In this document: positions 220-59,949 of the stretch, one piece after another | How the letters are laid out: each line of letters opens with the position of its first letter | How positions within the stretch are numbered: position 1 is the first letter of the stretch | Source: Pristiophorus japonicus | Taxonomy: Eukaryota | DNA: 64,000 nt | Direction: 5' to 3' | Assembly (NCBI RefSeq): GCF_044704955.1 | Contig: NC_091978.1 | Span: forward strand, 327,174,001 to 327,238,000 | Made by a program: the position numbers and the translations under genes | The notes under the pieces: generated by a model | What the model saw: only the letters and a program-made list of their open reading frames with translations | What the model was told of the DNA's origin: nothing | Databases searched by the model: none

Positions 220-1930
220 ATGGCGACCCCATCCACGCCGGTGGCAGGGCCAGCTAGGACATATGTGTAGGTGGCGTCCACATCCACAGCGCCTCCTGAG
301 CCTCCTGCTGCCCTGCCACCATTCAGACTTATAACCAAAAAACACGGGGTCAAGAGCTACACTCACCCCATAATGAGCATCGAGGAGTGCGTGCGGGCGA
401 TGGCTGGGGTAGTCGGCCCCTCGGCCATTGTCGCAGCCTCCAAGATGTCTGGGAAGGTGGTATTCTTCCTGGGGTCGGAGCGGGCGGTGTCCCTGGCCCT
501 TGAAAAGGGGCTCACAGTGGGCGGGACGTTCCTGCTGGTGGACCCTCTCGAGGCCACCACGCAGAGGGTCATCATTTCAAACGTCCCGCCCTTTGTTCCC
601 GCTGAGTTCCTCCTCCCTCACCTACACCAACTGGGGGAGGTAAGGTCGGAGATCAACCCCATACCGCTCGGCCTCAGGGAGAACAGCCTGCGCCATGTGT
701 TCTCCTTCCGCCGCCAGCTCTTTGTCCGGCTGGCGCGGGAGGAGACGACGGAGGGCAATTTTAATGTGGTGCACGAGGGGACTGCCTACCGCGTCTTCTG
801 GACGTCGGACGGCGTGCGGTGCCATGCCTGCAGGGAGGTGGGGCATGTTCGCAAGAACTGCCCCGCCTCCAAGGCCGCCAAACCACCGAAGGCGGCCAAG
901 GCTGGCGCCGCCGCCACCCCTCCCCCTATTTGCGTCCGCGTGCCGGGAGCTGTCAGTGCGCGGGCATCGTCGGGGGCCTTTGTTTTCACGGCCTCCGGCG
1001 GGGGGGAGGGAGAACGTCCGATCGGAAAGAAGGCGCGGAGGAAGGCGAAACATCTTGAGGCGGGTCCCCTCAGTGCGCCAGACAGTCTGACCACCGCGCT
1101 CAGCCCAACCCTGTCACCGGCGAGCGCGGGGTGCCCTGAGCCCATGCCCGAGTCCTTGACCAATATCACAGAGGGGCTCGGGCGCGGGCAAGATAAGAAA
1201 AAGGGGGGAGTGGAGCGGGAGGCCTCGGCAAACATGGAGGTCTCCCTGCCTCCGCGCCACCCCAGGAACAAAAGGAGGCACCGCCCCAATGAGGCGGAGG
1301 GGGAACAACATCCATCCGCGGAGGAGTCGGTGCCCGCCGCGTGTCCCGCGTCCCCCACCAGCGCCCCCAAACTGCGCCGTAGGCAGGAGGAATCTGTCCC
1401 CGGGGAAGGTGAGACAGTCGAGGCTGCCCAGCCTCTGCCTCCCGGGGATGGCGTGGAAGATCTGCCTGTCGTGGGGGGCGTGGGGCCAGCGGAGGAATGC
1501 GTAGCCGCTGGATCGAGCGTCCCGGGGACTGAGGCGGACGGGGCCGAAAAAGAGCCCGCCGAGCCAATATCCAACTTCCCCCGGGATTTGCTCGACTCGG
1601 CAGAAACTGAAAATGACAATAATTTCACAGAACATCCACACGCTGGGCCGGGGGTTGGCAGCGGGGAGGGGGAAGAACAACAACCCTCGCCCCCTACTTT
1701 GGAGCTGGGGTACTTGGAGGACCTGGTACATTTCTTTGACCAGGTCTCTCCGCCTTCCCCGGCTCCTGGGGCGGAGGAGGAACCCCTTCCGCTGTCGCTT
1801 CCTGACCCAGCACCGCTTTTAAAAGAGCCCAGTGGGGACTCCTCTGCCGACGATCCTGGGGGTGGGATCGGGGTAGAGCCAGGGCCGGATGGAGCGGCTA
1901 GGCCATTTGCCGTACCTCGTGTGGTTGACG
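220..1930 (+). pseudogene. Tx1 ORF1 (RNA-binding region, zinc knuckle, Pro/Glu-rich tail)
   Basis: ATG at 220 (MATPSTPVAGPARTYV), in-frame TAG at 268-270, then the 271 ORF with VIISNVPPF and CHACREVGHVRKNC. Truncated by a deletion at about 1930. Confidence 0.8.
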
Positions 1931-4900
1931 GGCCGGTTCCAGGACTCGTTCCGTCGTTTCTGGGCCGACTGGAGAAGGAAGCAGGGGAGCTTACCCTCCT
2001 TGAGGCTATGGTGGGACGTGGGCAAGGCTCACGTCCGCGTCTTCTGTCAAGAGTACGCAAGGGGGTCGACCAAGAGGCGGGCGGCCAGGGTCGGGCACCT
2101 AGAAAAAGAGGTGCTCGAACTGGAGTCCCGTCTCGGTCAAGTCGTCGAGGACCCGACCCTGCGGACGGTGTACGAAGCGAAGAAGGCCGCGCTGAAGGAC
2201 CTGCAGCTCGTCGGGTCCCGAGGCGCGTTCGTGAGGTCGCGGATCCGGTTCCTGCGGGATCTGGACTGCGGCTCTCCCTTCTTCGATTCGCTGGAAAAAA
2301 GACAGAGTGTCCGTAAGCAGCTCTTGACGCTGCAGGCCGACGACGGCTCTCTCGTCTCGGATCCGGAGGGCATCAACAACAGGGCCCGTGAATATTACGG
2401 GGCTCTGTTCTCTCCGGAGCCGTCCAGTGAGGAAGCGTGTAGAGTTTTGTGGGAGGACCTGCCGAAGGTCAGCCCGGAGGGCGCCGAAAATCTGGAAGCT
2501 CCCTAAGCCTGGCAGAGCTGACCGACGCCCTCGCCCGGCTCTCAAGGGGAACAGCCCCAGGGCTGGACGGGCTGACCGTGGAGTTCCACAGGGCGTTCTG
2601 GGACGTCCTGGGGGGCGACTACGCGCGGGTCCTGGGGGAAGGTCTGGCGACCGGGGAGATGCCCCTCTCTTGGCGCAGGGCAGTCATCGTCCTGCTGCCT
2701 AAGAAGGGCGATCTCCGCCTCCTTAAGAACTGGTGCCCGGTCTCCCTCCTCAGCACGGACTACAAAATCTTCGCCAGGGCGATGTCTGCTCGCCTTGGCG
2801 CCATGCTGGACCACATGATCCACCCCGACCTGTCCTACACGGTCCCGGGACGGACAATCCACGATAACATCCATCTGGTCCGGGACCTCATCCATTGTTC
2901 CCAGGAGGCTGGTCTGTCGGTCGCCTTCCTATCTCTCGACCAAGAGAAGGCGTTCGACAGGGTGGATCACGATTATCTGTTCGGAACTCTGCGCGCTTTC
3001 GGATTCGGGACGCATTTCGTCGCCCGGATCCGACTTTTGTACGCCGCCGCGGAGTGTCTAATAAAGGTTAACGGGTCCTTGACGGCGCCCCTTCGCTTTG
3101 GGAGAGGGGTGCGCCAGGGATGCCCCATGTCCGACCAGTTATATGCCATCTGCGTGGAGCCTTTCCTGCGCCTCCTGCGGACGAGGTTGACGGGACTGGC
3201 TCTGCAAGGGCCGGGCGTGGAGGTCGTCCTCTCGGCTTACGCCGATGACGTGCTCCTCGCGGTAGAGGATCCCGCTGACCTGCGGAGGATGCGTGAGTGT
3301 CAGGAGATTTACTCGGCCGCATCCTCTGCCAGGATCAACTGGGAGAAATGTTCCGGACTCCTGGTGGGTCAGTGGCGGGTGGACTCCCTGCCGGAGGAGC
3401 TCAGGCCTTTTGCCTGGAGCACGACCCATCTCCTCTATCTGGGAGTCTACCTTAGCCCCGACGAGGAAGCCTGGCCGGCGAACTGGCAAGAGCTGGAGGC
3501 CAAGGTCACCGCTCGCCTAGGGCACTGGACAGGACTGCTCCGAGTGCTGTCCTACAGGGGTCGAGCGCTAGTTATAAACCAACTGGTGGCCGCCATGTTG
3601 TGGTACCGGCTGGTCACTTTGACCCCTCCCCCTGCGTTTGTCACCAAGATACAGAAGAAGCTGGTGGACTTCTTCTGGAACAACAGGAAGCACTGGGTCT
3701 CTGCCGCGGTCTTGAGTCTCCCGCTTGGGGAGGGCGGTCAGTCGTTGATGTGCGTCAGCACCCAGCTCGCGACTTTCCGTCTTCAGACCCTGCAGAGATA
3801 TCTTTACGTCGAGCTCCCTCCCAGGTGGCGTGCTCTGGCGACGTATTTCTTCCGCCAGCAGCACGGCCTCAACTTCGACACGCATCTCCTGTTTGTGAGC
3901 TTGGGGGGCGTGAGGACCGCCTTCCAGGAGCTGCCTGTCTTTTACAAGGAACTCACCAGGGTCTGGAACAAAGTCTCCACCAAGCGCAGCTCTCCACCAG
4001 CTGGAGTGGCGGCTGTCCTGCACGAGCTGCTGCTCGGGAATCCGTACCTCCACGACCGAGGTTTTAGGTGGCGGTCGGACGAGAGGGCTGTGGCTGGTGA
4101 GGTGACCAGGGTCAGGGACCTGCTCGATGACGGAGGAGCGGGCTGGATGGCGCCAGACATGCTGGCGCAGCGCCTAAATTCCGCCAACGTCCTCCGTGCG
4201 GCCGATGCCATCGAGTCGCTAAAAACAGCTCTGGGCCCTGACTCTGTTAGGTGCATCGAGGAGGCTCAAGCACGTGGGGAGATCCCGTCCGAACTGACCC
4301 CCGTCCGGACGGAATTCCTCATCGGCGCCAAACCCCGGAACCTCCCTCGGGAGCCGGTGCCTCACAACTTGAGCCGCCTCAAGGAAATCCCCTCCGTGCC
4401 TTTCAGTTCCGCGCGGAGGGGTTTCCTGTACGGGCTGCTCCTGCACACTCTCAACTTTGCCATCCTCACCTGCCGTCCAGACACACCATGGCGTACCATC
4501 TTGCCATCCGGAGGAGGCGGGGGTCCCTGATGGAGGGTACTCTACGCGGGAGTCCTCCCAGTATTTATCGGGGACTTGGCCTGGAGGGTGGTGCACGGAG
4601 CAGTGCCGTGCAATAAATTTTTAAGCCGGTTCACGGGCTCCCAGGCCGCCTGCAATTTCTGCGGTCTGGAAGAGTCCGTGTTCCATGTTTTTATTGAATG
4701 CACGAGGTTGCAGCCCCTGTTTTGTTATTTAAAGGGGCTGCTCCTGAAATTCTGGCTGCACTTCAGTCCCACACTCCTGATCTTTGGGCACCCTGTACGG
4801 AGGGGAGCGGGTAGGTCTGAGGGCCTCCTCGTAGGACTGCTCCTGGGCATGGCCAAGGGTGCCATCAGCCGGTCCAGGCAGCGGGCGGTCGAGGGGGTCA

Positions 4901-16332: not shown

Positions 16333-16883
16333 CATCATAGCCAGTCCCTCAAAGCGAGGATGACTTGTTTTCACGCCAAAAAGAAATGAGTTGACAGGTG
16401 TTTCAATGAAGGACCTAATATTCCAGATCCCGAACTTCATCTTGGAGGGTGGAAGATGCCTGTGCTTGGATTTTTTTAACGTGTGGTGGCCATTGCACAC
16501 CAGCCACCACACGGGCTTGACAGAGCTAGGTCTTGGTCCAGTGGCAAGGATTACCCAAGACGACTGGAGACAGCTCTGCTGCACGGACCGAGCGCGCACA
16601 CATATTGCAGTGTGGGCTGGCCTGTGCTGCCCCTGCGTCCTCGCCTCTTCTGGGCCCCAGACTCAGGCCTCTCCCGGGTCAGTTCCCTCTACAAACTCTT
16701 GCCGTTTCTTTGCCCCTCCTGCTGTGCCTGCTCACACTGCAATGAGCAACCTGACTTCACAGCCATTGCCTCCTGCAGTGGTATGCCGCCACACGTTGTT
16801 CCCTCTGATCGCCCCGGCCTGCTGATGATCTTGCAGGCCGGGACCGTGCCGATTTGTGGGCCGGACCGCCGCACCTGCTCCCT
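16333..16883 (-). mobile_element. About 550-bp non-autonomous retroelement with an RTE 3' tail (copy 1)
   Basis: Homologous to 28455-29012. Ends in ..CAAGTCATCCTCG..GAGGGACTG.CTATGATG, the tail shared with the RTE LINEs here. Confidence 0.75.
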
Positions 16884-28388: not shown

Positions 28389-28400
28389 AGTCGGCAGGAT
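28389..28400 (+). promoter_or_regulatory. Partial primer-binding site, tRNA-Ser(AGA/TGA type)
   Basis: AGTCGGCAGGAT equals the last 12 nt of TGGCGTAGTCGGCAGGAT, the complement of the vertebrate tRNA-Ser(AGA) 3' end. It lies upstream of gag. Confidence 0.65.
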
Positions 28401-28454
28401 ATCCCCAGGGGACGAGACACCGATCGTACCAGACCATCACTGAGTGGGTCGAAC

Positions 28455-29012
28455 AGGGAGCAGCATGCGGCGGCCCGCCCGGAACATCAGCAGGCCGGGG
28501 CCATTGGAGTGAGCAGCGTGCGGCGGCATACCACTGCAGGGAGCAGCGCGTGCTGCTGCAGGAGGGCGACGGCTGTGAAGCCAGGTCGCTGATTGCAGTG
28601 CGGGCTGGCACAGCAGGAAGGGCGAAGGAGCGGCAAGAGTTTATAGATGGAAGTGACCGGGGCCAAGAAGAGGCGTGAGTCTGGGGCCCAGAAGAGGTGA
28701 GAACCCAGGGCAACACGGGCCAGCCCACACTGCGATATGTGTGCACACTCGGTCGGTGCAGCACAGTTGGTCTCCAGTTCGTCTTGGGTAATCCTTGCCA
28801 CTGGACCAAGACCTAGCTCTGTCAAGCCCGTGTGGTGGCTGGTGTGCAACGGCCACCACATGTTAAAAAAATCCAAGCACTGGGATCTTCCATCCTCCAA
28901 GATGTAGTTCGGGATCTGGAATAATAGGTCCTTCATTGAAACACCTGTGAACTCATCCCTTTTTGGCGTGGAAGCAAGTCATCCTCGTTTCGAGGGACTG
29001 CCTCTGATGATG
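28455..29012 (+). mobile_element. RTE-tailed non-autonomous element (copy 2), inserted in the ERV leader
   Basis: Starts AGGGAGCAG like copy 1; ends GTGGAAGCAAGTCATCCTCGTTTCGAGGGACTGCCTCTGATGATGA. Confidence 0.75.
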
Positions 29013-29147
29013 ATTTTAAAATTACTACTCTCAAATCCGATGTGTTCCAGACATTAAGTGCAAGTCAAGCGGGATATCAGAGCAAATAAAGTAATTGTTA
29101 GCGATCGAAAACAAGTAAGTTTGGAGTAAGCATTTAGTTTGGGTAGA

Positions 29148-29850
29148 ATGTCTACTAATGCAAAGACTGACGAATGGAGTCTGGAGGGAATCGTTGGCAA
29201 GATTTTTTTACAGACAAGCGCATGAAACTAATTTTGAGGAATGAAGAAGAATGGGTGGGACCCATCAGATGAGCCCGCCAAACACAAGTTGTGGTGGGAG
29301 ACACAAACCAAATACAAAACTGACAAAGCCGGAGTTTTAATAACAAGGCAATGTCTGCGTTATCATGAAAAAACAAAACCAAAGTTAGTAGAATTGAGTC
29401 AATTGCGTAAGGAAAGAAAGTCTGTTCAGTCACTGGCATGACCCAGACCAGGAATTGAATGAGGTAATTGAAACAAAACAATCGTGCAGCCGCCCCGACA
29501 ATAAAAACAGACCTCCCTCCTATAGCGAAGTACGGGCAACTGCTCCCGAATTTGACGCATATGGAGAGGAGGTTGCAGTGGCACCAGTAGTAATTGTTGC
29601 CGGTCCATGCGGGAGAAACCTTGGAACAAGATATGAGCCTTTTACCTCCGGTGAAAAACAGACATTACTAAAGATTTGCCCACCTTAAGACCCCGACATG
29701 GCAATGCCGACTTTTGGAGACTCATCAGAGAGATGTATAACATCCAAACATGCATGAATGAGATGTTCACCAACTAGTATGAGCAAAGTGCCCCGAGATA
29801 AGGGTACAGGTTTTGGCCAGGGATTGGGCCAAGACCGGCCAGTGGGGGGT
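29148..29850 (+). pseudogene. gag: ERV gag, N-terminal part; remainder of capsid, nucleocapsid and protease deleted
   Basis: ATG at 29148 is in frame with 29241-29441 across stops. 29455-29688 contains PPSY and APVV..YEPFTSGEKQTLL. Lies directly upstream of RT. Confidence 0.6.
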
Positions 29851-29864
29851 AATGTGCCAGCCTG

Positions 29865-32346
29865 CCTGAGGCATGGGCTAGGATGAAACAGGACAGTGGT
29901 CTTGTGAGAATGGAACCCATTAAAGTCCTGGGGCCAGAACACAAAGTGCACCAACAATACCCGATATGCCCTGAGGCATGTGAAGCAGTAGCCCAGATAA
30001 TACAGGAGTTGGTGACAGAATGGATTTTGAAGGAGGTTGTAGCCAGTACCAATTCCCCTGTGTGGCCAGTAAAAAAACCAGATGGGTCACATCATCTCAC
30101 CATCGACTACACAGCACTGAATATGGTGACTCCCTGGGAACACCCTATAGTTGCTAGTCCCTCCACCATTTTTAATGGTCTTAAACCTGAGCACAAGGTC
30201 TTCACGGTCCTAGATATTGCCAATGGATTTTGGTCCATATCAATAGCCAAAGAATCACAGCCCAAATTTGCATTCAGCTTTGGAGAACGACAGTACACGT
30301 GGACAAGACTGCCACAGGGGTTCCACAATAGCCTGGCCATCTTCCACCAGACGATGATCCGAGCATTCGAAAATGTAAACCTGGCCCCATATAATTATGG
30401 TCCTACAGTACGTTGATGACTTACTCATCGCCTCTAAGAGTCCAAGGGAGCCTGGTAGTCATCTTGGAGGCCTTGATCGAGGCCGGATTTAAGGTGAGTC
30501 GCAAAAAAGCCCAAATAGGACTTGCCAAAGTACAGTACTTGGGGCACAAAATCTCACAAGGGTTCCGGGCCATGTCCAATGAGAGACGGGATGTCATTCG
30601 GGTGATGCCGCACCCAACTACTATAAAGGACATAAGGAAAGTCCCGGGCTTGTTTAACTATTGCAGAAATGTTATCCCGAATTTCGCGGCTCCAGCGGTG
30701 CCCATCCAAAAACTTGTAAAAGGCAGAAAGCCGTCCTTAGAGGCCATAGAATGGGGAACAGAGCAAGAGGAGGTGTACGTCAAGCTAAAAGAGGCTCTAA
30801 TGAGCGCGCCATGCTCGGTCTACCAAACATGGAATTGCCGTTCCACATTCACTGTGACAATGTCGGGAACTTTTACGGGGCGGGTCGTCACGCAGGATCA
30901 CAGCGACAGACACTGACCCGTAGCTTACTTTCCAACCCAGCAGTCATCAGTAGCCACCGGGCTGTCCAGATGCGTGGCAGTTCTGTAGTAAAAGCTAGTG
31001 AACTGCTAGTGATGACAGGAGCTATCATCCTGGTAGAAATGTTGAATACAGGGAAATTAAGGGCCATCTCAAACGTAAAACGGGCAAAATGGGAAGCTGT
31101 TCTATTGCCTAAAGACGAGTCTCTCAAAATAGTGCGAGGCACAAAATAGTGCAGAAGGACTTCTGGAGGAAGCGGAACCCCACAGTTTTAACGCGCTGGA
31201 ATGGGAGGACTCCCCAGGCAATATCAGTGAAACTCCACAGGAGGACCCCGATCTGACCCTATACGTGGACGGGTCTAGAAAGTGTGTAAGTGGATCACCC
31301 CATACTGGGTGGGCGGTTGTTAACGTCAATTTGGAAACTGTACTTAGCAGGGCTTTAGAAGGAGGACTGTCTGCCCAAGTGACCGAACTTACGGCCCTGA
31401 CAGAAGCTCTCAAACTAGCCGAAGGAAAAAGAGCAAATATATATATATAGACAGTCGCTATGCCTTCGGGGTAGTATATGATTATTTGACGGCTTGGGGA
31501 AGATGAGGGTTTGTCACCTCGCGCAGAGAGGCTATTATACATGAAGGAAGAATTAAACTACTGCTGCACGCCTCTACAAAACCCGCCCAAGCGGCGGTGG
31601 TGAAGGTGAAAGCTCACCAGAAAGTGATTGACGAAATAGAAAAAGAGAATGAGGCCACGGACATAGCTGCTCATGAAGCAGCTGAGTCCCTGGACCCAGT
31701 CCCAGAATCCGTTTGTGCGCTAGCAATTGGGGAGAAGGACGTGGACATTAAACAATTACACGCCAATACAGATGAGAAGGAAAAGGTAGAATGGGAGTGC
31801 CTGGGAGGAATCCTGGGTGCAGATGATGTATGCAGGCGTGATCAATGAGTCATAGCCCCCGAGTGTATTAGAAGAATGCTGATGGAACTACACTACGGCA
31901 TAGACCACCGGGAGCGCAATGCCATGATCACGAGCTTACAGAAAGAATGGAGGTGGCCAGCACTGGGATGCCAGGTGGCCAAGAACTGTCAGTTATATAT
32001 TACATGCATGCAGCACAACCCGGGAAGGGCAGTAAAGATAACGATGAGCCTCCAGCCCCGACCACGAGGTTCATGGGAAAACTTTCAGATTGACTTCACT
32101 GGGCCACTCATCACAGCACATAATGGTAAGAAATACTGCCTAGTTATAGTGGATCAGTTCACTAGGTGGGTGGAAGCATTCACCACTCGCGACTGCACCG
32201 CAACAACTGTTACCAAGATATTGGCCGAGAAAGTCTTTCCCCAGTGGGGAATACCGGTCCAGGTAGATACATGCGCATGCGTGGAGATACGTGGACAAGG
32301 ACGGTGGAGACACTGGTCACAGTTGAAGAAACTCACCAATCAATAA
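29865..32346 (+). pseudogene. pol: ERV pol: RT, tether, RNase H, integrase (integrase core partly deleted)
   Basis: RT: NSPVWPVKKPDG, TVLDIANGFWSI, YTWTRLPQGFHNS, LQYVDDLLI (about 30403). RNase H: LYVDGS..SAQVTELTALTEAL..NIYIDSRYAFGVV. Integrase: QIDFTGP..LVIVDQFTRWVEAF..WGIP. Confidence 0.92.
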
Positions 32347-32408
32347 GCAGACAACGTCAGGGCATCTGCTCTTTATGACCCACAGGTACCATGATAAGCT
32401 GCGCCAGG

Positions 32409-34346
32409 ATGCGGATAGCCCTAGTGGGAATCACGATCATGACGGTTTACTGCACCCCGCTAGCGAGGAACGGAGAGACTGTACTGCGTTCACAAAGAGC
32501 TGTGTAGGCCACCTGAAAGCAACAACAAGGCCTGTATTAGAAGGACTTGGGTGATGTCAGTTGTGATCAAGAGCAAGAGACATTGACTGTGACAATTGGC
32601 AAAACTGTGCATTTAAATTGTAGCTCCGGAATAACGGATGTCTCAGTTGTCTGGGAAACAACACTAGGGAAAGGATGGCTGGGGAGTAATACAGTGGGAA
32701 TAACTGTTATGTGGATGGATGTGCACATGGTATGCAATCAGAGAGTCGGGTGTGTGCCGGCGGACAGTGTGCAAGTACAGTGCGTGAAAAGTTACGTTCA
32801 ATGGAATGCTCTCAGTAATTGTGAACCTCACTGATCTGGGTCTGCCGGAAGAATGTAACGCCAAAGTAAGGGCACTATACAACCGCCTGCTAGATATATT
32901 ATTAAGAGAGGCAATGGACACAGATGGAGCATCACAGGCCAGGGTGAAATTAAACATTTATCGTAAGTAAAGGGGACTGGTAAATGCACGCTCTGAGAGT
33001 CTCCGGGAGACGATGCAGGGATTGTTACAACTCTACACACAATCTGCCCATGGGGTGGGGGGTGGTGGAGTGGGGGGGACAGTTGGGGAAGGTGACAACT
33101 GAACAGCTATTGAAGGGAATAACAGTCCAGAAGGGCATGCAGCTACTATCAATAAACTAATTGACAGGGAATACAAGGATAGAGTTGACGGGGTAAAACG
33201 AGATGTGTGCCATGCATACGGAGACTGGGTGGTGAGGCAGATCCGCCATAACCTGGAACAAGTCAATCAAGGAAAGGTCCCAAATTAGGTAAACAGCACA
33301 CACTAGCTTTCCCTCGCCCAGCATCCCGGAAACATAGACGCATGTACATTGAAGGGGATGACCCCTTCCTGGTAATCGTGTGTGGACTCCCATTTAACAT
33401 TGGTGGGCTGGTATTTGTGATCCCAGTGATGACCGGAACAGAAGGCCCATGAGATAAAAAACTTGGGGCTAATCCGAGGAAACAAATACCTCCGGTAACA
33501 CCCCATGGACCAGTATGCCAGTAGAATGAATGGGAGCATGCGAGGAGTCTCCCTCTCTGGTTGTCGCCGGGTAGGGAGTCTGACTATATTTCCACACCCA
33601 GTAGGAAGAGATAGCATGAACGGTTGTGGGTTCAACCGAACTGCAGGCTGTGTACTAGAATCTAGCCCAGCCTGGAGCGAGCCAACACACTCTGTATATA
33701 GGGGCAGAGGTGAGTACTGTGTGGTGACTAACCAACAGGCTTACAACTATGGGAACCTGATATGCCCCATCCCAAAACCTAACTTCTGCTTCACCTCACG
33801 GGTACCAGTTAGCATTGGCTGGGCCAGATTGATAGATGTCCACACAAGAAATGAGGTGACTCTAAGTGTAACTGATGATTTAAAGGCAGACCTGGAGTCA
33901 TAGGAGGAGGACATGGCAGCCCCAATCCCACATCTTGCGGAGGATCTAAGTGATATTAAAGATACCCTGTGGGAAAATGTGCGGCAATACCACCTTCTAG
34001 AACAAGAATTAAAAAAATTAGGAGTCAAGGTTAACCGGGACCTTCAAAAGGTCCCGTGGTATGTGTCAGCCTGGGATTGGGGAATGAATGTTAACATACA
34101 CCCTACTCTTGGATTCATATAATATCACACATATTTGAGATTGTACAGTTAATACTGGTGATAGGCTGGCTGACTACAACATGCAAGGCTTGTGCCACGT
34201 GAAAGAACCGGCTGCAAGCTAAAGCATTAGTGAATCTAACCCCAAGGCACTGGACCTCCCAAACTTTTCGGCTGATCACCAATGTGGGGACAGCAGACCC
34301 AAGACAGATAGTTAGCATAGCCAAGATCACCAAAAGGGGGGACTGA
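32409..34346 (+). pseudogene. env: ERV env resembling Mononegavirales fusion (F) glycoprotein
   Basis: In order: signal peptide MRIALVGITIMTVYC, Ig-like VTIGKTVHLNC..VVW, LPEECNAKVRALYNRLLDILL, heptad region, Cys-rich VSLSGCRRVGSLTIFP..GCGFN..GC..YCVVT, C-terminal heptad, PWYVSAWDW, TM IFEIVQLILVIGWL. Several stops and frameshifts. Confidence 0.8.
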
Positions 34347-34897
34347 AGTGGGGCAATAAGTCACACTGGACAAATCAGACATGGAATAGAGGGTTAAAGT
34401 GTGTTCGATAGAAGCAGCCTTTGCAAAACCTAAGCCAAGAAACAAAATGTACATCTGCACTGTCTTAAGGCCTCGTCAGATCCTTGATGTCTCTACAGAA
34501 GAGATAACTCAGGGATAGTTGTTTTCAAACCGACACGTCAGAAAAACTGGCACCCAGCAGAGCAAAGGTCAAAGCAGGGCAAGAGCATGGCTGCATAAAC
34601 AACCCACAAACACAGTGGGGGAAAGGTCCTAGGCATAGGCGGAATGGAAACCTTCTTCATCTTGAGTGACAAGGGGCTGTGTCCATTCAAATCAATGTAT
34701 GTCTCATGTATTGAATGTCCGGCCATTATAGGCCGAGTAAATGTATAAAAACCCGACGTGATCTTTGTTCGTAGAGAAACAGGTACGGAGAGTTCAGTGG
34801 GGACTGACTATGGCCTGTTTTCTCCCTTGCAAGTAAAATAAACTTATGTGTGTTTGATTCCTAATTCCTAGAGATTAATTATTTAATCTCCACTTCA
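34344..34897 (+). repeat. ERV 3' LTR (554 bp)
   Basis: TGAAGTGG...CCACTTCA termini, preceded by the PPT; TATAAAA near 34744 and AATAAA near 34837. Confidence 0.9.
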
Positions 34898-42387: not shown

Positions 42388-42652
42388 ACCCACATCCAGA
42401 GGAAACCAATCTCTAAAATAGTCATTCATCCTACATTTATTTTAGTATTTAAGTACAATTTTTTGTATTTGTTTTCATTTATTTACTTTTTTCACAACTG
42501 CAACATCCACAAACGAGGGGTGGGTTTCAGCAGAAATGCCGGGAGGACCCTCCGAGGACCAATGCTTGCAAGGTCACCAGTAGGTTCACTATTTTACATA
42601 CCAATGGCGGGCACATGCACACGAGAGGCACATCTAGGGCGTCTGCCGTAGG

Positions 42653-45600
42653 TGTTGTGTATGGAGAAAGAGTCAGACTGAACACTGTGAGCTCAAAGTA
42701 AAGTGTGACTTTAGTCTTTTATTGCAGGTCTCCAGAGTGCCTCTCCAACCTGTGAAGCCTCCTTAAATACCTGTGCTCCCAAGGGATTATGGGATCCCTT
42801 GGGATTCCAGGGGATGAGCCCTCTGGTGGCTGTACAGAGTAAATACAAGTCCACATATATAACAACACTCCCCCCCGCCAAAGTCAATAGTGTAACTATT
42901 TACAATGTGAGTCGATCTGGGGCCCTTCTTGCCCTGGTTGATCGTCTTGGTGTGAAAGCTGGTGTTGTTAAATCATTTGTTGGGCCCTCGCTGGGCTGCT
43001 GGGCAGCTGGCCTTGCTGGGCTGCCTGGTGTGTTGCGCCCTGCAGGGCTGCTGTGGATGATGGGTTCTGCTTCGTGGTCAACCGTGGTGCCGGTTGCCAC
43101 TGGTGTGTATGTTGGGGGATCAAAAAAGGTAGGGTCCAAGGTGGGTTGCTCAGGATAGTCCGTGAATCTGAGTTTGATTTGGTCCAAGTGTTTCCAGTGA
43201 ATGAGTCCATTTGAAAGTTTGACCCGAAACACCCTGCTCCCCACTTTGGCCACGACAGTGCCGGGAAGCCACTCGGGACCTTGTCCATAATTTTAAAAAA
43301 TACAGGATCATTGATGTCAATCTTGTGTGACACATTTGCGCCATCATGGTATGCAATTTGTTGAAGCCGCCTGCTCTCTACCTGTTCATGTAGATCAGGG
43401 TGAACTAATGAGAGCCTTGTCTTAAGTGCTCTTTTCACGAGCAGTTCAGCAGGTGGGATCCCAGTGAGTGAGTGGGGTCTCATGCAGTAGCTAAGCAGGA
43501 TTCGGGATAGGTGAGTCTGCAGTGAGCCTTCAGTTACCCTCTTCAAGCCTTGCTTGATGGTTTGCACTGCTCTCTCTGCCTGACTATTGGACGCTGGTTT
43601 AAACGGGGCAGATGTGACATGTTTGATCCCGTTACGGGTCATGAATTATTTGAACTCAGCACTAGTTCAAGAGTCCCAGAAATGACCACAGCTCTGTCAC
43701 GTTCTGTGGCCTCTGTGCGTTCTCGATTGCCTCTGTCTTCCCGTTAGTGGGCCTGATGCCATCCGCCGCAATCCTCCTTCTCAAGCACTCCACTACAGGC
43801 GCCAGGAAAATGCACTTCGAGTGTTTCAACCTGAGCCCCACGCAGTTGAGTCGACTAAGAACCTCCTCCAGGTTCTGCAGGTGCTCGACTGTGTTCCGAC
43901 CTGTGACCAAGATGTCGTCCTGGAAGACCACAGTGTGCTGGACCGACTTCAGTAAACTTTCCATGTTTCTCTGGAATATCGCCGACGCTGATCGGATTCC
44001 AAACGGGCATCTGTTATAAACAACAAGACCTTTGTGCGTGTTGATGCAGGTGAGAGCCTTCGATGATTCTTCCAGTTCCTACGTCATGTAGGCTGAAGTC
44101 AGACGTGAACGTCTTTCCTCCCGCCAGTGTTGGAAAGAGGTCATCGGCTTTTGGTAGTGGGTATTGGTCCTGCAGGGAGAAACGATTGATAGTTACTTTC
44201 TAATCGCCACAAATTCTGACGGTGCCATCTCCCTTGAGGACTAGGACAATAGGACTGGCCCACTCGCTGAACTCGATCGGTGAAAAGATGCCCTACCTTT
44301 GCAACCGGTCTAGCGCGATCTCTACCCTTTCTCTCATCATGTACGGTACTGCTCTCGCCTTGTGACAGATGGGTCGCGCCCCCAGAATTAGGTGGATCTG
44401 CACTTTTGCTCCTTGGGAAATTCCCGATGCCTGGTTCGAACAGTGAAGGAAATTTGTTTAAGACCTGAGCACACGAAGTGTCGTCAGCAGGCGATAGCGC
44501 TTGGACGCCGTCCCAGTTCCAGTGTATCTTTCCCAGCCAGCTGCTGATGAGCAGCGTGGGACCTGTAATGTCCTTACACACGACTATAAATTCACATGAG
44601 GCACATTCTGCAGACAAGATCACTCTGTGACCTGAACCTTTATTCACAAGAAGTGATGACCCTGCATGGGACCTCCTTTTATATACCTGGATGACCAGGT
44701 GAGAAGTGTCTCCCACAAATTCACCCTCTGTGGTCAAGGTGTGCATTTCTTAGGTGTATACAGTATGCAGTGTAGTTATGAAGGTTACAGTTATATGAAG
44801 GTTACATACATGACATCACCTCCACCCCAAAGATTAAGTCTTTCAGGCTGTCGACGCTCTCTTGTGGGGCGCTGCAGTTGGGGCTCTGGTTGTTGAGCCT
44901 TGGCATGCGTCTCTGTCACCTGTAGTGATTCCGGCTTGTCCGGGCTTGCCGCAGGGACTGTGCATGCTGCTGAATGTTCTTGTTGCTCGTTCATTGGCGG
45001 TGGTGTGGGCAACATCTCATGATCTTCCTCAGGTTCCTTAGTGTCCATGCTGAACCTTTTTTTTACTTGGTCCAGATGCTTGCGGCATATCTGTCCATTG
45101 TTAAGTCTCACCACTATGACCCTATTTCCCTCTTTGCCAATGACAGTACCCTCGAGCCACTTGGGCCCCAAAGCGTGATTAAGAACAAATACAGGGTCAT
45201 CGATTTCTATACATCTACCCTTTGAGTTACGGTCATGGCACTCATTTTGGGACTGGCGTTTGCCCTCAACAATGTCTGTCAGGATAGGATGAATGAGGGA
45301 CAGCCGAGTTTTAAGTGTACGTTTCATGAGTAGTTCCACGGGCGGGACTCCCATGAGCGACTGCAGTCGGGACCCATAGGCCAGCAGGAGGCGCGATAGG
45401 CGGCATTGAAGGGAGGGTCCTTGAATCCAGAGCATGCCCTGTTTTATGATTTGGGCCGCATGTTCCGTCTGGCCATTGGAAGCCGGCTTGAACAGTGCCG
45501 TCCTGACATGTTTGATGCCATTACCCGACATGAACTCCCGGAATTCATAGCTAGTGAAACATGGGTCGTTGTCGCTAACCAGGATGTCTGGCAAGCCATT

Positions 45601-48600
45601 GGTCGCAAAGACCGCACGCAGACTCTCCACAGTGGTGGATGTCGTGCACGAATTCAATATGATGCACTCGATCCATTTCGAGTACGCATCAACAACAATG
45701 AGGAACATCTTTCCCATGAACGGGCCCGCGTAGTCTACGTGAATACGTGACCATGGCCTGGTGGGCCAGGGCCACGGGCTGAGTGGGGCCTCCCTGGGGG
45801 CATTGCCGAGCTGGGCACAGTACGTGCACCTGCGAACACAGTGTTCCAGGTCTGAGTCAATTCCCGGCCACCATACATGTGACCGGGCAATGGCTTTCAT
45901 TAGCACCATGCCTGGGTGCTCGCTGTGGAGTTCCCTGATGAATGTTTCCCTTCCCTTCTGGGCCATGACTACCCAGCTGCCCCATAGTAGGCAGTCGGCT
46001 TGGATGGAGAGCTCATCCATCCGTCTGTGAAACGGTCTGACCTCCTCAGGGCATGCTCCGTGTGCGGGCGCGCAATCCCCAGTCAAGACACATTTCTTAA
46101 TCAAGGATAGGAGGGGATCTCTGTTGCTCCAGATTTTGATCTGCCGGGCTGTGATGGGGGAGCCTGCGCTGTCAAAGGCTTCAATGGCCATGACCATCTC
46201 AGCGCTTTGCTCCGCTGCCCCCTCAGTGGTGGCCAATGGAAGCCTGCTGAGCGCGTTAGCACAATTTTCGGTGCCTGGCCGGTGCTGAATGGTGTAGTCA
46301 TACTCAGCCAGCATGAGAGCCCATCGCTGTATGCGAACTGATGTATTGGCATTGACAGCTTTGCTCTCTGACAACAGGAATGTTAATGGCTTGTAGTCCA
46401 TTTCTAACTCGAACCTTCTGCCAAAAAGGTACTGGTGCATCTTTTTCACCCCATAGACACATGCGAGTGCTTCCTTTTCAACCATCCCATATCCCCGTTC
46501 TGCCTGGGAGAGCGACCTGGAGGCATAAGCCACAGCTTTGAGTTGGCCCTCATCATTACTCTGCTGCAACACGCACCCAACCCCATAGGATGGTGCATCA
46601 CATGTCAAAAACAATTTCTTACAGGGGTTGTACAGAGTCAACAGCCTATTAGAACAAAGCAGGTTCTGCGCCTGATTGAAAGCCCGTTCCTGACATTCCC
46701 CCCAAAACCAATCGCAACCCTTACGCAGGAGCACATGTAGCGACTCCAACAATGTGCTTAAATTCGGCAGAAAGTTCCCAAAATAGTTCAAGAGTCCCAG
46801 AAATGAACGCAACTCCGACGTGTTGCCGGGCCTGGGCGCACGACGAATCGCCTCCATTTTGGATTCGGTAGGCCGGATCCCATCTGCAGCAACCCTCCTG
46901 CCCAAAACCTCGACCTCTGGGGCCGGACTTCTTTAGTCGCGGCCTACCTGGTCCAGTCGGCGTAGCACCTCCTCCAGGTTGTGGAGGTGTTCCTCGGTGT
47001 CTCGACCCATGATAAGGTTGTCTTCCTGAAATACGATTGTTCCAGGGATGGATTTGAGCAGGCTTTCCATGTTCCTTTGAAAGATAGCAGCCGCTGATCG
47101 AATGCCAAATGGACACTTGTTGTAGACAAACAGCCCCTTGTGCATGGTGATGGTGGTCAGTAGCTTGGATTCTTCGGCCAGTTCCTGGGTCATGTAGGCT
47201 GAAGTGAGGTCCAACTTGGTGAACAGCTTGCCACCTGCCAGCATGGCAAAAAGATCCTCCGCTCTCGGAAACGGGTATTGGTCTTGTAGTGACACTCTGT
47301 TGATAGTGGCCTTGTAGTCGCCACAGATCCTGACCAAGCCATCCGTTCTTAGGACAGGGATGATGGGGCTTGCCCAGTCACTGAATTAAATGGGTGAAAT
47401 TATGCCCTCTCTTAGCAACCTGTCCAACTCACTCTCAATTTTCTCCCGCATCACATACGGCACAGCTCTGGCTTTGTGGTGCACTGGTCTGGCGTCCGGG
47501 GTGATGCGTATCACTACTTTGGTACCTTTGAAAGTCCCGACACCAGATTGAAATAGTGACTCAAATTTCTGTAGGACCTGTGAGCATGAACTTCGCTCCA
47601 CAGATGAAATGGCGTGCACATGCCCCCCATTTCCAGTGCATCTCAGCTAGCCAGCTCCTCCCCAAAAGCGCGGGACCGTTTCCGGGACAATCCAGAGTGG
47701 CAGCTGGTTCTCTGATCCATTATGTATGACCACCAACATTGCACTGCCTAGCACTGGGATGATCTCTTTGGTGTACGTCCTTAGTTGCGTGTCAATGCGT
47801 TCTAGTTTGGGTCTGCTAGCTCTGAGTGGCCATAGTTTCTCGAATTGTTGGACACTCATAAGTGACTGGCTGGTCCCTATGTCCAGCTCCATGCATACCG
47901 GGATGCCGTTTAATAGGACTTTCATCATCATAGGTGGCGTTTTGGTATATGAGCTGTGGATGTTTGCCACATGAACCCGCTGAACTTCAGCATCCATTTC
48001 TTTGTCCCAAGCATCAACCTGCCTTGCATACCCCTCTTCTGGTTCATCTGACTCGTAAATTAGCCTCCCTGTGGGCTTCCTGCACATTCTGGCTAAATGT
48101 CCACTGAAGTTACAATTTCTACAGATAAATTGTTAAAACCGACAGGTTTTTGCAGCATGTCTGCCCCCCGCACCTCTAGCATGAGCCGAGATCGGTGTGA
48201 ACAAAAGGGTTGTTATCAGGCATTCCTCTCTGATTGTCTCTTTGATTACTCTTGAGCACTCTGTTAATGGGTGTCAATGGCCCCATCCCGGGACGCATTG
48301 TCCACCGTGATAGCGTAAATGTCTGTTCAACCTGCCATTGTCTCTGTTGAGGACCCACTCTAGAGTTGCTGCCTGGGTGGTGTCGAATTGCCCTTGCCTG
48401 CCTGCGGGGTTCTGAGTCGCGTTTACAATGTTAACTCCCTGATCCATCACCACATTGGAAGCAGAGTTGCGTGCGTATATTATCTTGGTTTCCTCCTCCC
48501 CCACCATGAAGATCTGAGCCATCAACGCCGCTGCTTCCAAGGTCAAGTCCTTGGTCTCAATTAGCTTTCTGAAAATCCTGGTATAACCAATGCCCTCAAT

Positions 48601-50700
48601 AAAGAAATCCGTTAACATCTCCCCCCTGCAGATGTCTGTGAACTTACAGAGGCTGTCCAAGCGCCGAAGGTCTACAACGAAGTCCGGTATGCTCTGTCCT
48701 TCCCGACGTCGGTGTGTCTCGAATCAGTGTCGGGCCATGTGTATACTGCTCACCGGTTTGAGGTGCTCACCGATCAGTTTGCTGAGCTTTTCAAAGGTTT
48801 TGTCCGCCGGCTTCTCGGGTGCGAGCAGGTCTTTCTTCAGCGTGTACGTCTTAGGTCCACAGCTGGTCAGTAGATGCGCCCTTCGCTTGTCAGCCACTGC
48901 TGCTCTCAGCCAGTCCTTCGTGACAAAGCTCTGGTGGAGCCTCTCAACGAAATCGTCCCAGTCCTCACCAAAACAGTACTGTTCCTCTGTGCTACCGGTG
49001 ACCATTCTCGTGAGTCGTTGATTCACGTTTCTCGTCGCCAAATGTAATGTCTTACACACTACTATAAGTTCACATGAGGCACATTCTGCAGATAAGGTCA
49101 CTCTGTGACCTGAACCTTTATTCACAGGACCAAGAAGTGATGACCCTGCGTGAGACCTTCCTTTATATACCTGGATGACCAGGTGAGGAGTGTCTCCCAC
49201 AAGTTCACCCCCTATGGTCAAGGTGTGCATTTTTTAGGTGTATACAGTATGCAATGTTGTTATGAAGGTTACAGTTACATGAAGGTTACACACATGACAG
49301 GACCATCGCCCGGTACCATGCAGAATGGTAGCTTGAGCACTGCTCCATCGCAGGAGACCTTTACGGTAGCACTGCCGATTACAGGAATCAGTTCTTTAGT
49401 GTAAGTTCTTAGTTTTGTGTGAACTGGAGTTAAGACTGTCCTTTCGAAAGTCTTTTTGCCCATAATAGACTGGCTCGCGCCCGTGTCCAGCTCCATTGGC
49501 ACGGGGAGTCCATTTTGTTCAACATTCAGCAGTATCGGGGGACAATTCGTGGTGAATGCGTGCACTCCATGTACCTCTGTCTCCTCTATCTGAGGCTCTG
49601 GTTCATCGTGACCCTCCATGGATCTGTCCTACTCTGCAACATGGTGGTTTGCAGGTTTACCAGGCTTTGCAGCTCGCCTGCACACTCGTTGGAGGTGTCC
49701 CATTGTTCCACAGTCCTTGCAAACGTACTCTTTGAATCGGCATGAATGGAAATGATGATCACCCTCGCAGCGCCAACAAGGTGTTAATGGCCTTGCATTC
49801 ATCACCCTTGATGGTGGACTCTGAGTCACCTGCAGACGTGCAGCTGCAGGTTTGTGTGACCTGCCCTGTACGTTACAATTCAAAAACAAAATCACTTTGT
49901 TCACATTACTTGTAGCAGCACTTGTGTGCTGAGAGATTTGCTTCGTATTGTCACTGGTGGCAATGAACGCCTGGGCTATCGCTATGGCCTTACTCAAGGT
50001 TAGGGTCTCTACAGTTTGTGAAGTATGGTTTCATGGCCAATGTCAAGTACGAAAAAGTCTCTGATAATGTGCTCCAAATGTCCTTCAAATTTGCAATGTC
50101 CTGCAAGGCGTCTTAGCACGGTGACATAACTCGCCACTTCCTGACCTTCAGATCTTTTGTAGGTGTAGAACCGGTACCTTGCCATCAGAACGCTTTCCTT
50201 TGGGTTCAAATGCTCTCAGACCAGTGTGCACAAATCGTCGTACAATTTCTCTGTGGGTTTCGCTGGAGTGAGCAGATTCTTCATGAGGCCATACGTTGGT
50301 GCCCCACAGACGGTGAGGAGGATCGCCCTTCATTTGGCAGCGCTCTCTTCCCCATCTAGCTCGTTGGCCACGAAGTATTGGTCGAGTTGCTCCACAAAAG
50401 TTTCCCAATCATCTCCCTCGGAGAATTTCTCCAGGATGCCCACTGTTCTCTGCATCTTTGGGTTCACGGGCTGTATCTCATCGCCAGTTGTTATGTATGG
50501 AGAAAGAGTCAGACTGAGCACTGTGAGCTCAAAGTAAAGTGTGACCTTAGTCTTTTATTGTAGGTCTCCAGAGTGCCTCTCCAATCTGTGAAGCCTCCTT
50601 AAATACCTGTGCTCCCAAGGGATTATGGGATCCCTTGGGACTCCAGGGGATGAGCCCTCTGGTGCCTGTACAGAGTAAATACAAGTCCACATATATAACA
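42653..50700 (-). mobile_element. Gypsy LTR retrotransposon (outer), with RNase H to integrase N-terminus deleted
   Basis: LTRs 42653-42864 and 50489-50700 (212 bp), PBS TGGCGATGAG, PPT GGGGGGGAGTG, TSD GTAGG/GTTGG. gag with CCHC, protease LDTGAS, RT FQDD. Deletion junction near 43662. Confidence 0.93.
44564..49299 (-). mobile_element. Full-length Gypsy LTR retrotransposon nested in the outer Gypsy
   Basis: LTRs 44564-44815 and 49043-49299, perfect TSD GGACC, PBS TGGCGACGAG. gag-PR-RT fragments and a 704-aa RNase H-integrase ORF 44791-46905. Confidence 0.95.
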
Positions 50701-57832: not shown

Positions 57833-59949
57833 ACTGTCGGAGGTCATTGGGCTATGCGCATGTGTGTGCGGCCCAGGTATAAAAGGCCAGCCATCTTGTG
57901 ATGTAATTACTTTGGGCCCTAATAAAGTAGAGCCAGGTTTGTACCTGTTCGGAGTTTACAGTATTCAGTCTATTGAGTTATTGCATACACAACATTTGGT
58001 GATGAGGTAACAAGAATCTTTGCATGCAAAAATGAGAACAATTGGAATTCTGGAATGATTTGTGGAGGTAGAAGATTGGGCAGACTTTGTAGCCCGCTTG
58101 AACCAGTACTTCGTGGCCAATAAAATGGAGAAAGAGGCAGACGCGGTTCTGCGCGGGCGGTCCTCCTCACGGTTTGCGGTCCGAAAATCTATGGACTCAT
58201 AAAGAATCTCCTCTCACCCTTAAATCCAATGTACAACGACTATGAAACATTGTGTGCTCTGGTATGTGACCATCTCAAACCAGATGAAGGCATCATCATC
58301 TCAAGATATCGATTGTATACGCACGTTCGTTCTGAGGGCCAAGATGTATCGGAATTCGTTGCCGACCTAAGACATCGAGCTGGACCGTGTAAATTCGAAA
58401 CTGCGTTGGCAGATATGCTGCGGGGCTTCTTTGTAATCGGCATCAACCATGAGGTGATCCTGCGTAAGCTACTGGCGGTGGAGACACTGGATTTGAGCAA
58501 GGCCATCACAATTGCCCAATCATGCATGATGATAGACAAAAGCATAAAGCAGATATCATTGAAAAATCAGAACTCGGCAAGTACTGTGAACAAGATAGTA
58601 TTGTCGATTGGCAGAGTTACATATGGCAGGGCCTACCCGACTGCATACGCAAAACTTGTGGCTGCTCAAAGTCCGCCAATGGGAATGAATCCGATATCAC
58701 CGTGTTGGCATTGTGGGGGAAATCATCGGTATCATCAGTGTCGGTTTATACAGTATATTTGTAAAGGCTGTTCGAGAGTGGGGCATCTCCAACGCATATG
58801 TCCGCAACTGAGCAAGCGTGCTGTGACACACCAGGTGGAGGATGATGACCAGTCTAGCGTGGATCCGGATATGCAATTCGAGATACCAGAGAAGGAAGTA
58901 TATGGACTGTATTCGTTCCTAACAAAGAGCCAACCGATAACGATTAATGTAAAACTTAATGGTGAGCCGGTATCGATGGAATTGGACACGGGTGCGAGTC
59001 AATCAATAATGAGCCAGAGGACATTCGACAGGCTGTGGGATACTAAGGCTGTGAGGCCTAAGCTGAGTCCAGTCGATGCCAAGTTGCATACATACATTAA
59101 AGAAATCATAATGGTGATTGGCAGTGCAGTAATCAAGGTGTCGTATGATGGTGTGATTCAGGATTTACTGCTATGGATTGTTCCAGGCAATGATCCAACG
59201 CTGTTCGGCAGGAACTGGTTAGAAAAAATCAAATGGAACTGGAACGAGATCAAAGCATTGTCGTCTTCGAAGGATACTCCATGTGCTCAAGTGCTGAGCA
59301 ATTTCCCCTCGCTGTATGAACTAGGCATCGGCAATTTCATGGGAGCCAAGGTGCAGATTCACGTGGATTCAGATGCAAGACCTGTCCATCATAAAGCTTG
59401 GGTAGTTCCAGACATGAAGAGGAAGAAGGTTGAAATCGAACTGGATAGACTCCAGCATGAAGGGATCATATCAGCGGTTGAATTTAACGAGAGGGCCAGC
59501 CCCATTGTTCCCATGTTGAAAAGTGATGGCACTGTCAGGATTTGTGGAGACTACAAGGTTACAATCAACCAAGTTTCGAAACAGGATCAATACCTGTTAC
59601 CAAAGGCTGATGACCTGTTTGCAATGCTAGCCAGGGGGAAGTCATTCACAAAACTGGATCTGATGTTGGCCTACATGACACAAGAGCTGGTCGACATGTC
59701 GAATAAACTTACGTGCATCAACACTCATAATGGACTATTTATCTACAACAGGTGCCCTTTTGGAATTCGCTCAGCTGCAGCCATATTTCAGAGGAACATG
59801 GAGAGTCTACGAAGTCCATCCCCAGAACTGTCGTGTTCCAAGATGACATATTAATCACAGGTCATGACTCTGCCAAACATCTGAACAACCTGGAAGAGGT
59901 TCTATATCGTCTGGACAAAGTGGGACACAGACTGAAATGCTTGAAGTGC

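Follow-up and report, generated by a model that had tools for sequence, protein, structure and literature searches.

We analysed a 64,000-nucleotide stretch of the genome of the sawshark Pristiophorus japonicus (RefSeq assembly GCF_044704955.1, contig NC_091978.1, positions 327,174,001 to 327,238,000 of the forward strand; hereafter the window), which carries a broken endogenous retrovirus (ERV) at 28389-34897. An earlier note on this DNA had taken the element for a chondrichthyan lokiretrovirus or a related undescribed lineage. Our analysis leads elsewhere: with a probability of roughly 0.85, it is a decayed shark retrovirus that belongs neither to the lokiretroviruses nor to the foamy viruses, that lies near the base of Retroviridae, probably at the grade of snakehead retrovirus (SnRV), and whose envelope protein (Env) is predicted to resemble the fusion (F) glycoproteins of paramyxo- and pneumoviruses.

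The exclusion from the lokiretroviruses comes from all three pol domains. In a 35-row reverse transcriptase (RT) tree the lokiretroviruses formed one clade (support 98/96) and the known retroviruses, including both RT fragments of the window, formed another (100/99), to which the lokiretroviruses are sister; the shark family itself was recovered at 98/96. Forcing the family together with the lokiretroviruses was rejected (approximately unbiased (AU) test, p = 9.95e-6), as it was for RNase H (p = 0.0012) and for integrase (p = 0.004). The RNase H joins that of SnRV and the gamma- and epsilonretroviruses at 100/99, and not group I (lokiretroviruses and foamy viruses), and the integrase falls outside the lokiretrovirus clade, to which CGIN1 is related. 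Two larger RT trees concur on the non-lokiretrovirus placement, one of 72 rows (5 rows without a usable YxDD anchor being excluded) and a quick one of 64 rows (8 dropped for reasons of time or long branches); 35 of the 72 rows served for the AU tests. Natural lokiretrovirus Pol proteins were retrieved through a lokiretrovirus RT fragment carrying the published motif; SnRV, walleye dermal sarcoma virus (WDSV), foamy virus and alpha/beta genomes were taken from IMG/VR, and key labels were checked against published alignments. The RNase H tree was built without Gypsy and alpha/beta rows, no tree held an Odin reference, and CGIN1 was not in the integrase tree.

The features of the element, all on the + strand and in window coordinates, are as follows.

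28389-28449, +: 3' remnant of a tRNA-Ser primer-binding site (PBS) and start of the leader (match to the sequence that follows the 5' long terminal repeat (LTR) in copies L014, L015, L033 and L035)
28450-29012, +: later insertion foreign to the provirus, probably the 3' tail of a long interspersed nuclear element (LINE), ending in (GAT)n (84% identity to window 16333-16830)
29013-29800, +: leader, then a broken 5' half of gag (sister-family Gag in tblastn, E = 2.6e-7 and 7.9e-5)
29801-31140, +: pol, RT (LPQGFHNS, QYVDD) and tether, frameshifted (Pfam RVT_1, E = 1.8e-13; RT_RNaseH_2)
31145-31690, +: pol, RNase H of the SnRV/gamma/epsilon type (Pfam RNase_H, E = 1.5e-6; tree support as above)
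31849-32340, +: integrase, HHCC domain and N-terminal part of the core, with the extreme C-terminus retained (Pfam rve, Integrase_H2C2)
32390-34230, +: env, broken, with N-terminal accessory domain, F-type ectodomain (heptad repeats, Cys-rich domains) and transmembrane (TM) anchor (tblastn, env profile)
34330-34343, +: polypurine tract (PPT), AAAAGGGGGGAC, abutting the LTR
34344-34897, +: 3' LTR of 554 bp, TGAAGTGG...CCACTTCA, with TG...CA ends (LTR matches across the source genome, G000)

Together these pieces form a decayed + strand provirus without remaining coding capacity: every open reading frame (ORF) has stops or frameshifts, pol runs across all three frames, and env holds many stops. 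The 5' LTR is absent, and 34344-34897, a corrected extent, is the sole LTR within the 64-kb window. The PBS remnant (about 28389-28400) matches the PBS of sibling copies (TGGCGTAGTCGGCAGGAT), and the first 60 bases correspond to the sibling PBS plus leader; the sibling PBS and the 3' end of the source genome's tRNA-Ser(AGA) genes are complementary. Matches to this tRNA 3' end number 1022 genome-wide, with hundreds in tandem on C23 (about 11.7-20.5 Mb, spacing about 1.95 kb); three loci examined, all on contigs other than C23, are tRNA-Ser(AGA) genes. The insertion at 28450-29012 is missing in sibling L033, and its tail and its occurrence beside LINE ORF2 remnants suggest the LINE label. A deletion at about 29801 removed the C-terminal part of capsid, the zinc knuckles and the protease, where siblings L031, L033 and L035 are 1.0-1.1 kb longer; a second one of about 500 bp, at about 32268, affects the integrase, and env is about 240 bp short relative to the fuller siblings. 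The earlier note's inventory of parts largely holds up, namely a PBS remnant (matched by sibling copies), a PPT, gag (in tblastn fragments, its 3' part being deleted), an RT with YVDD, a tether, an RNase H with the series DGS..SAQ..EL..DSRYAF, an integrase (Pfam matches, half of it deleted), a separate env and an LTR, as does its distinction of this env-bearing retrovirus from the neighbouring Gypsy elements.

Much of what follows rests on a young sister family in the same genome (copies L037-L042 and L044, on C8, C16, C2, C4, C27 and C19), whose proteins align along the window in the order gag, pol, env. In 5 of the 7 fetched copies gag, pol (about 1180 aa) and env (about 740 aa) are uninterrupted. 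The LTR stretches differ at 0/520, 0/521, 3/646 and 4/663 bases, and its env has at least 144 matches in the genome, all scored ones being 99-100% identical, which points to a very recent or ongoing expansion. The window copy shares 66% identity with this family in RT and 58% in RNase H (tblastn), and its broken env is matched by the sister Env at E = 2e-90 (tblastn, 37% identity over 467 aa); the tether scores E = 0.005 against Pfam RT_RNaseH_2 in the window and 4.9e-13 in the sister family. The sister copies have gag and pol in frame, separated by a stop, a Gag with two zinc knuckles (zf-CCHC, E = 3.8e-7), an integrase with MLVIN_C (E = 0.003), and an Env with a signal peptide, an RMKR site and a C-terminal anchor.

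The sister-family Env is predicted to fold like paramyxo- and pneumovirus F, and we extend this prediction to the window copy by homology. Pfam scans of the window and sister Env returned no viral family. The Atlas assigned the sister Env to the fusion glycoprotein family PF00523 at 0.92, with 202 shared features. A model built from a 28-row alignment (predicted local distance difference test score (pLDDT) 68, predicted template modelling score (pTM) 0.42) matched the F proteins of respiratory syncytial virus, human parainfluenza virus 3, Langya virus, Nipah virus, Newcastle disease virus and human metapneumovirus, all listed PDB rows being F proteins; the best Foldseek E was 1.6e-11 and the best Z 12.4, with a root-mean-square deviation (rmsd) of 12.7 and 354 aligned positions. 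In BFVD, Foldseek placed the Env of walleye epidermal hyperplasia virus 1 (WEHV-1; 5.5e-11), that of WDSV (1.4e-8) and, weakly, that of feline foamy virus (3e-5) amid lispi-, chu- and baculovirus proteins. In direct profile comparison (hhalign), the Env family gave a colinear alignment to SnRV Env that spans the cleavage site (probability 85%, E = 5.8e-6, 282 columns) and also aligned with WDSV Env (95.5%, E = 1.4e-8), against 0.3% for a gamma-type Env and 0.2% for the coiled-coil SnRV Gag as controls; a single-sequence model of the C-terminal part of SnRV Env was unusable (pLDDT 37.5) and was set aside. An F-like Env is therefore likely to be common to several fish retroviruses and is not diagnostic of lokiretroviruses, for which it was already known (PMC7947760). 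The likeness to Mononegavirales fusion proteins that the earlier note's reading implied for the Env was right in kind, by predicted fold and Atlas on the sister Env, and fails as a lokiretrovirus marker.

From one family to another the domain in front of the F core changes (window 32541-32831, L043:5962-6360, P0138, P0161, env N-terminus of L065): that of the window's family and of P0161 looks immunoglobulin (Ig)-like, as does, by eye, that of SnRV, and L037 has another, Cys-rich domain in this place. The Ig-like character is a lead only, coming from Atlas rows below 0.9 with a non-Ig top match and from a V-set match (E = 0.045) in one relative. This domain may be a swappable attachment module.

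It is from the Env, and from the dual RNase H, that a chondrichthyan lokiretrovirus would draw its case. By eye the Env layout is like that of Loki-Str (GPxxG-I/V start, RxKR site, cysteine pattern), and the lokiretroviruses described in PMC7947760 share the gag-pol-env order, the tether with RNase H, and an F-like Env that has coiled coils, a TM segment and an RxKR site. We nevertheless consider such an identity extremely improbable. The AU tests refute it for pol; the RT motifs are LPQGFHNS/QYVDD here and CPFGYxNSP/IYVDD in lokiretroviruses; these motifs, the gag-stop-pol layout and the zinc-knuckle Gag are ordinary retroviral traits, as is a tether with a second RNase H, common to all retroviruses; no smc-like region was seen; and an F-like Env is also reported for foamy viruses (PMC11468914). 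A lokiretrovirus RT query gave only 33-40% identity in its best 150 matches in the source genome, with no lokiretrovirus RT found among them, and 44-81% over most of its length against fish and frog lokiretrovirus proteins, and the published motif had 0 matches in the source genome; as these searches score the best candidates only, absence of lokiretroviruses from this genome is not proven. Two of the 12 fetched matches to the RT query were placed in the RT tree, both among class-III-like retroviruses. Locus L051 was discarded as a chance match to the motif. Loci L055 and L056 represent a second, class-III-like RT lineage in this genome, apart from the window's family.

As the earlier note stated, cartilaginous fish are not among the reported lokiretrovirus hosts: Fig. 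S1 of Wang and Han (PMC7947760) scores 0 of 6 screened chondrichthyan genomes. The window element leaves this gap standing. The Env family is itself present in Chiloscyllium punctatum and Scyliorhinus torazame, species from the screened set whose orders scored 0, which again speaks against a lokiretrovirus. Of the note's alternative, a related undescribed lineage, all that stays tenable is an unplaced lineage within Retroviridae. The shark host is borne out by 20 Env relatives looked up, 15 from sharks or rays (Pristiophorus, Mustelus, Chiloscyllium, Heptranchias, Heterodontus, Scyliorhinus, Rhinoraja), 3 from frogs and 2 unnamed; the closest named one and a near-identical match to the L043 Env are sawshark entries. 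Among the Pol relatives, the nearest named ones come from Mustelus and Heterodontus, followed by those from cyprinid fish.

Within Retroviridae, to which the LTR, PBS, PPT, target duplication and gene order of the window copy and its siblings also assign the element, the family branches in the RT tree from a basal polytomy that also includes SnRV, class-III-like elements and relatives from teleosts, and it lies outside the foamy clade (99/97) and outside the gamma/epsilon/alpha-beta clade (100/99). With WDSV and WEHV-1 it shares a homologous Env, the RNase H group, and gag and pol in frame, in contrast to its RT position and to its 5-bp target duplications (ERV1-type elements have 4-bp ones), which set the window's family apart from gamma- and epsilonretroviruses. 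Foamy viruses have an Env with an F-type structural core (a class Ib fusogen; PMC11468914), but the shark family differs from them in that RT, RNase H and integrase fall outside their clade, in the CCHC knuckles of the sister Gag, and in a single C-terminal Env anchor. ERV4, for which Chong et al. 2014 give a Gag without zinc finger and no GPY/F motif, was also excluded, by the zf-CCHC and MLVIN_C matches of the sister family. The closest likeness is to SnRV, with an in-frame gag-stop-pol, a near-identical Gag knuckle motif (sister Gag, 54% identity over 41 aa, E = 1e-11), the RNase H group, a Pol of 35% identity, and the colinear F-type Env with cleavage site. SnRV differs in a longer Env and in 3' accessory ORFs, and in no tree that we built is it the sister of the shark family. 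The finest placement that is supported is "SnRV-grade, unplaced".

Several observations weigh against the proposed placement and Env fold. The grouping of the shark family with SnRV was not recovered by the RT tree (nor was it rejected, AU p = 0.24), the integrase tree separates the two, a 72-row quick tree puts the family nearer the gamma/epsilon/alpha-beta clade (95), and the trees hold no named ERV-L or lentivirus reference. The young-family copy L044 seemingly has a 4-bp duplication. As for the Env, the fold was predicted on the sister protein rather than on the window's broken one, with the pTM of 0.42 and the high rmsd values noted above; Pfam PF00523 was hit by 0 of the 28 Env alignment members, and PDB sequence searches with the Env found nothing relevant.

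A non-lokiretrovirus of this kind could also be a family already catalogued, as part of clade Huo, as a class III shark ERV or in Repbase, so that nothing here would be new; we think this quite possible, though somewhat short of an even chance. Lineage I of CmiERV in the elephant shark is reported to cluster with SnRV (Han 2015), clade Huo infects all vertebrate groups, and 2,843 clade III RT loci were counted across 6 chondrichthyan genomes. Against this, the CmiERV copy on scaffold 2, compared by eye, agrees in its tRNA-Ser PBS and departs in having a gamma-type env and another set of RNase H motifs, and the named relatives of our family are all "uncharacterized" or misnamed. Our literature search, which left out most subscription journals, found no report of lokiretroviruses in cartilaginous fish, nor of an F-type Env in SnRV, the walleye viruses or shark ERVs; with that coverage it is weak evidence of novelty. 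SnRV-related shark ERVs and the F-like Env of lokiretroviruses and foamy viruses are already known.

The env genes of close relatives raise a further alternative, in which an ordinary gag-pol acquired its env from a lokiretrovirus or a negative-strand RNA virus instead of inheriting it. Gamma-type env genes (Pfam TLV_coat) sit on the same pol clade in L045 (2636-3805), L047 (6197-6799) and L050 (6873-7565), with an immunosuppressive-domain motif in the first two, so that env has been exchanged among close relatives; the nearest RT rows to the window are L045 itself and L046, whose env is probably F-type. The top BFVD matches are moreover lispi-, filo- and chu-like glycoproteins, above WEHV Env. 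Such an acquisition seems unlikely to us all the same, as sequence comparison by the Env profile picks up the Env of SnRV and of WDSV and no Mononegavirales F, and the source genome yielded no lokiretrovirus RT among the best candidates scored. By eye, the env of L045, L047 and L050 is like that of CmiERV scaffold 2. Frog members of the F-type Env family are the P0154 cluster (Mantella, many copies of 677 aa), P0149 (Pelodytes) and P0162 (Xenopus tropicalis); they fit oddly with a 2025 report that describes gamma-type Env in all non-spuma amphibian retroviruses found.

By itself the window copy is an ordinary dead provirus, and the value of the finding lies in what the Env family tells of the ancestral retroviral envelope. 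Wang and Han (PMC7947760) left four scenarios for the origin of retroviral Env open, because they saw no similarity of lokiretrovirus Env to other retroviral Env, and Fernandez et al. 2024 have orthoretroviral Env as class Ia, with foamy Env alone F-like. An F-type Env that is linked by sequence to those of SnRV and WDSV and sits on an ordinary shark retroviral pol speaks for an F-type ancestor. One might tentatively go further, on a view to which we give a little less than even odds, and take F-type (class Ib) Env as the ancestral retroviral Env, kept in lokiretroviruses, foamy viruses, SnRV, walleye epsilonretroviruses and this unnamed shark and frog lineage, and repeatedly displaced by gamma-type Env. 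If true, the displacement would be caught between close relatives in one shark genome, where the F-type family is still expanding. The shark Env opens the four scenarios to testing by a structure-guided tree, and it cautions against calling lokiretroviruses from an F-like env.

A search of the source genome with the window's LTR gave 43 matches, from the best 40 scored of 505 candidates, among them paired and solo LTRs. Seven solo LTRs have complete ends, with an exact 5-bp target duplication in 4, one mismatch in 2 and none in 1; provirus L015 also has an exact 5-bp duplication. Paired LTRs of the window's family diverge by 0.089 and 0.114 (Kimura two-parameter), corresponding to about 20-26 million years if a mammalian rate is taken and to about 90-115 million years at 0.5e-9, the rate that PMC10699275 applies to a catshark, both rates being borrowed and not the host's own. 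Differences between copies are spread across codon positions (third-position share 0.33-0.46, LTR control 0.36, the counts not being independent), and this mild excess is consistent with mostly neutral decay. Siblings L011-L016, L020 and L025-L026 carry the window's LTR and have lost most of gag, RT and RNase H through common deletions, with integrase and env kept, and are a non-autonomous env-bearing subfamily.

The progenitor of the window copy would have primed reverse transcription with tRNA-Ser, made Gag-Pol by readthrough of the stop that separates gag from an in-frame pol (the arrangement of the sister copies and SnRV), and integrated with a 5-bp target duplication. Entry may have relied on a furin-cleaved class Ib (F-type) trimer with an exchangeable N-terminal domain, probably for attachment. 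The copy would then have lost its 5' LTR, its protease and half of its integrase, received the putative LINE insertion and decayed in a mostly neutral manner, while its RT-less, env-bearing siblings presumably spread in trans.

Elsewhere the window carries, on the minus strand, Gypsy-type LTR elements that lack env (42650-50700 and 58124-59854), as well as many CR1-type LINE fragments and, at 271-4530, two long ORFs of a non-LTR retrotransposon, which from its protein motifs we take to be Tx1-like.

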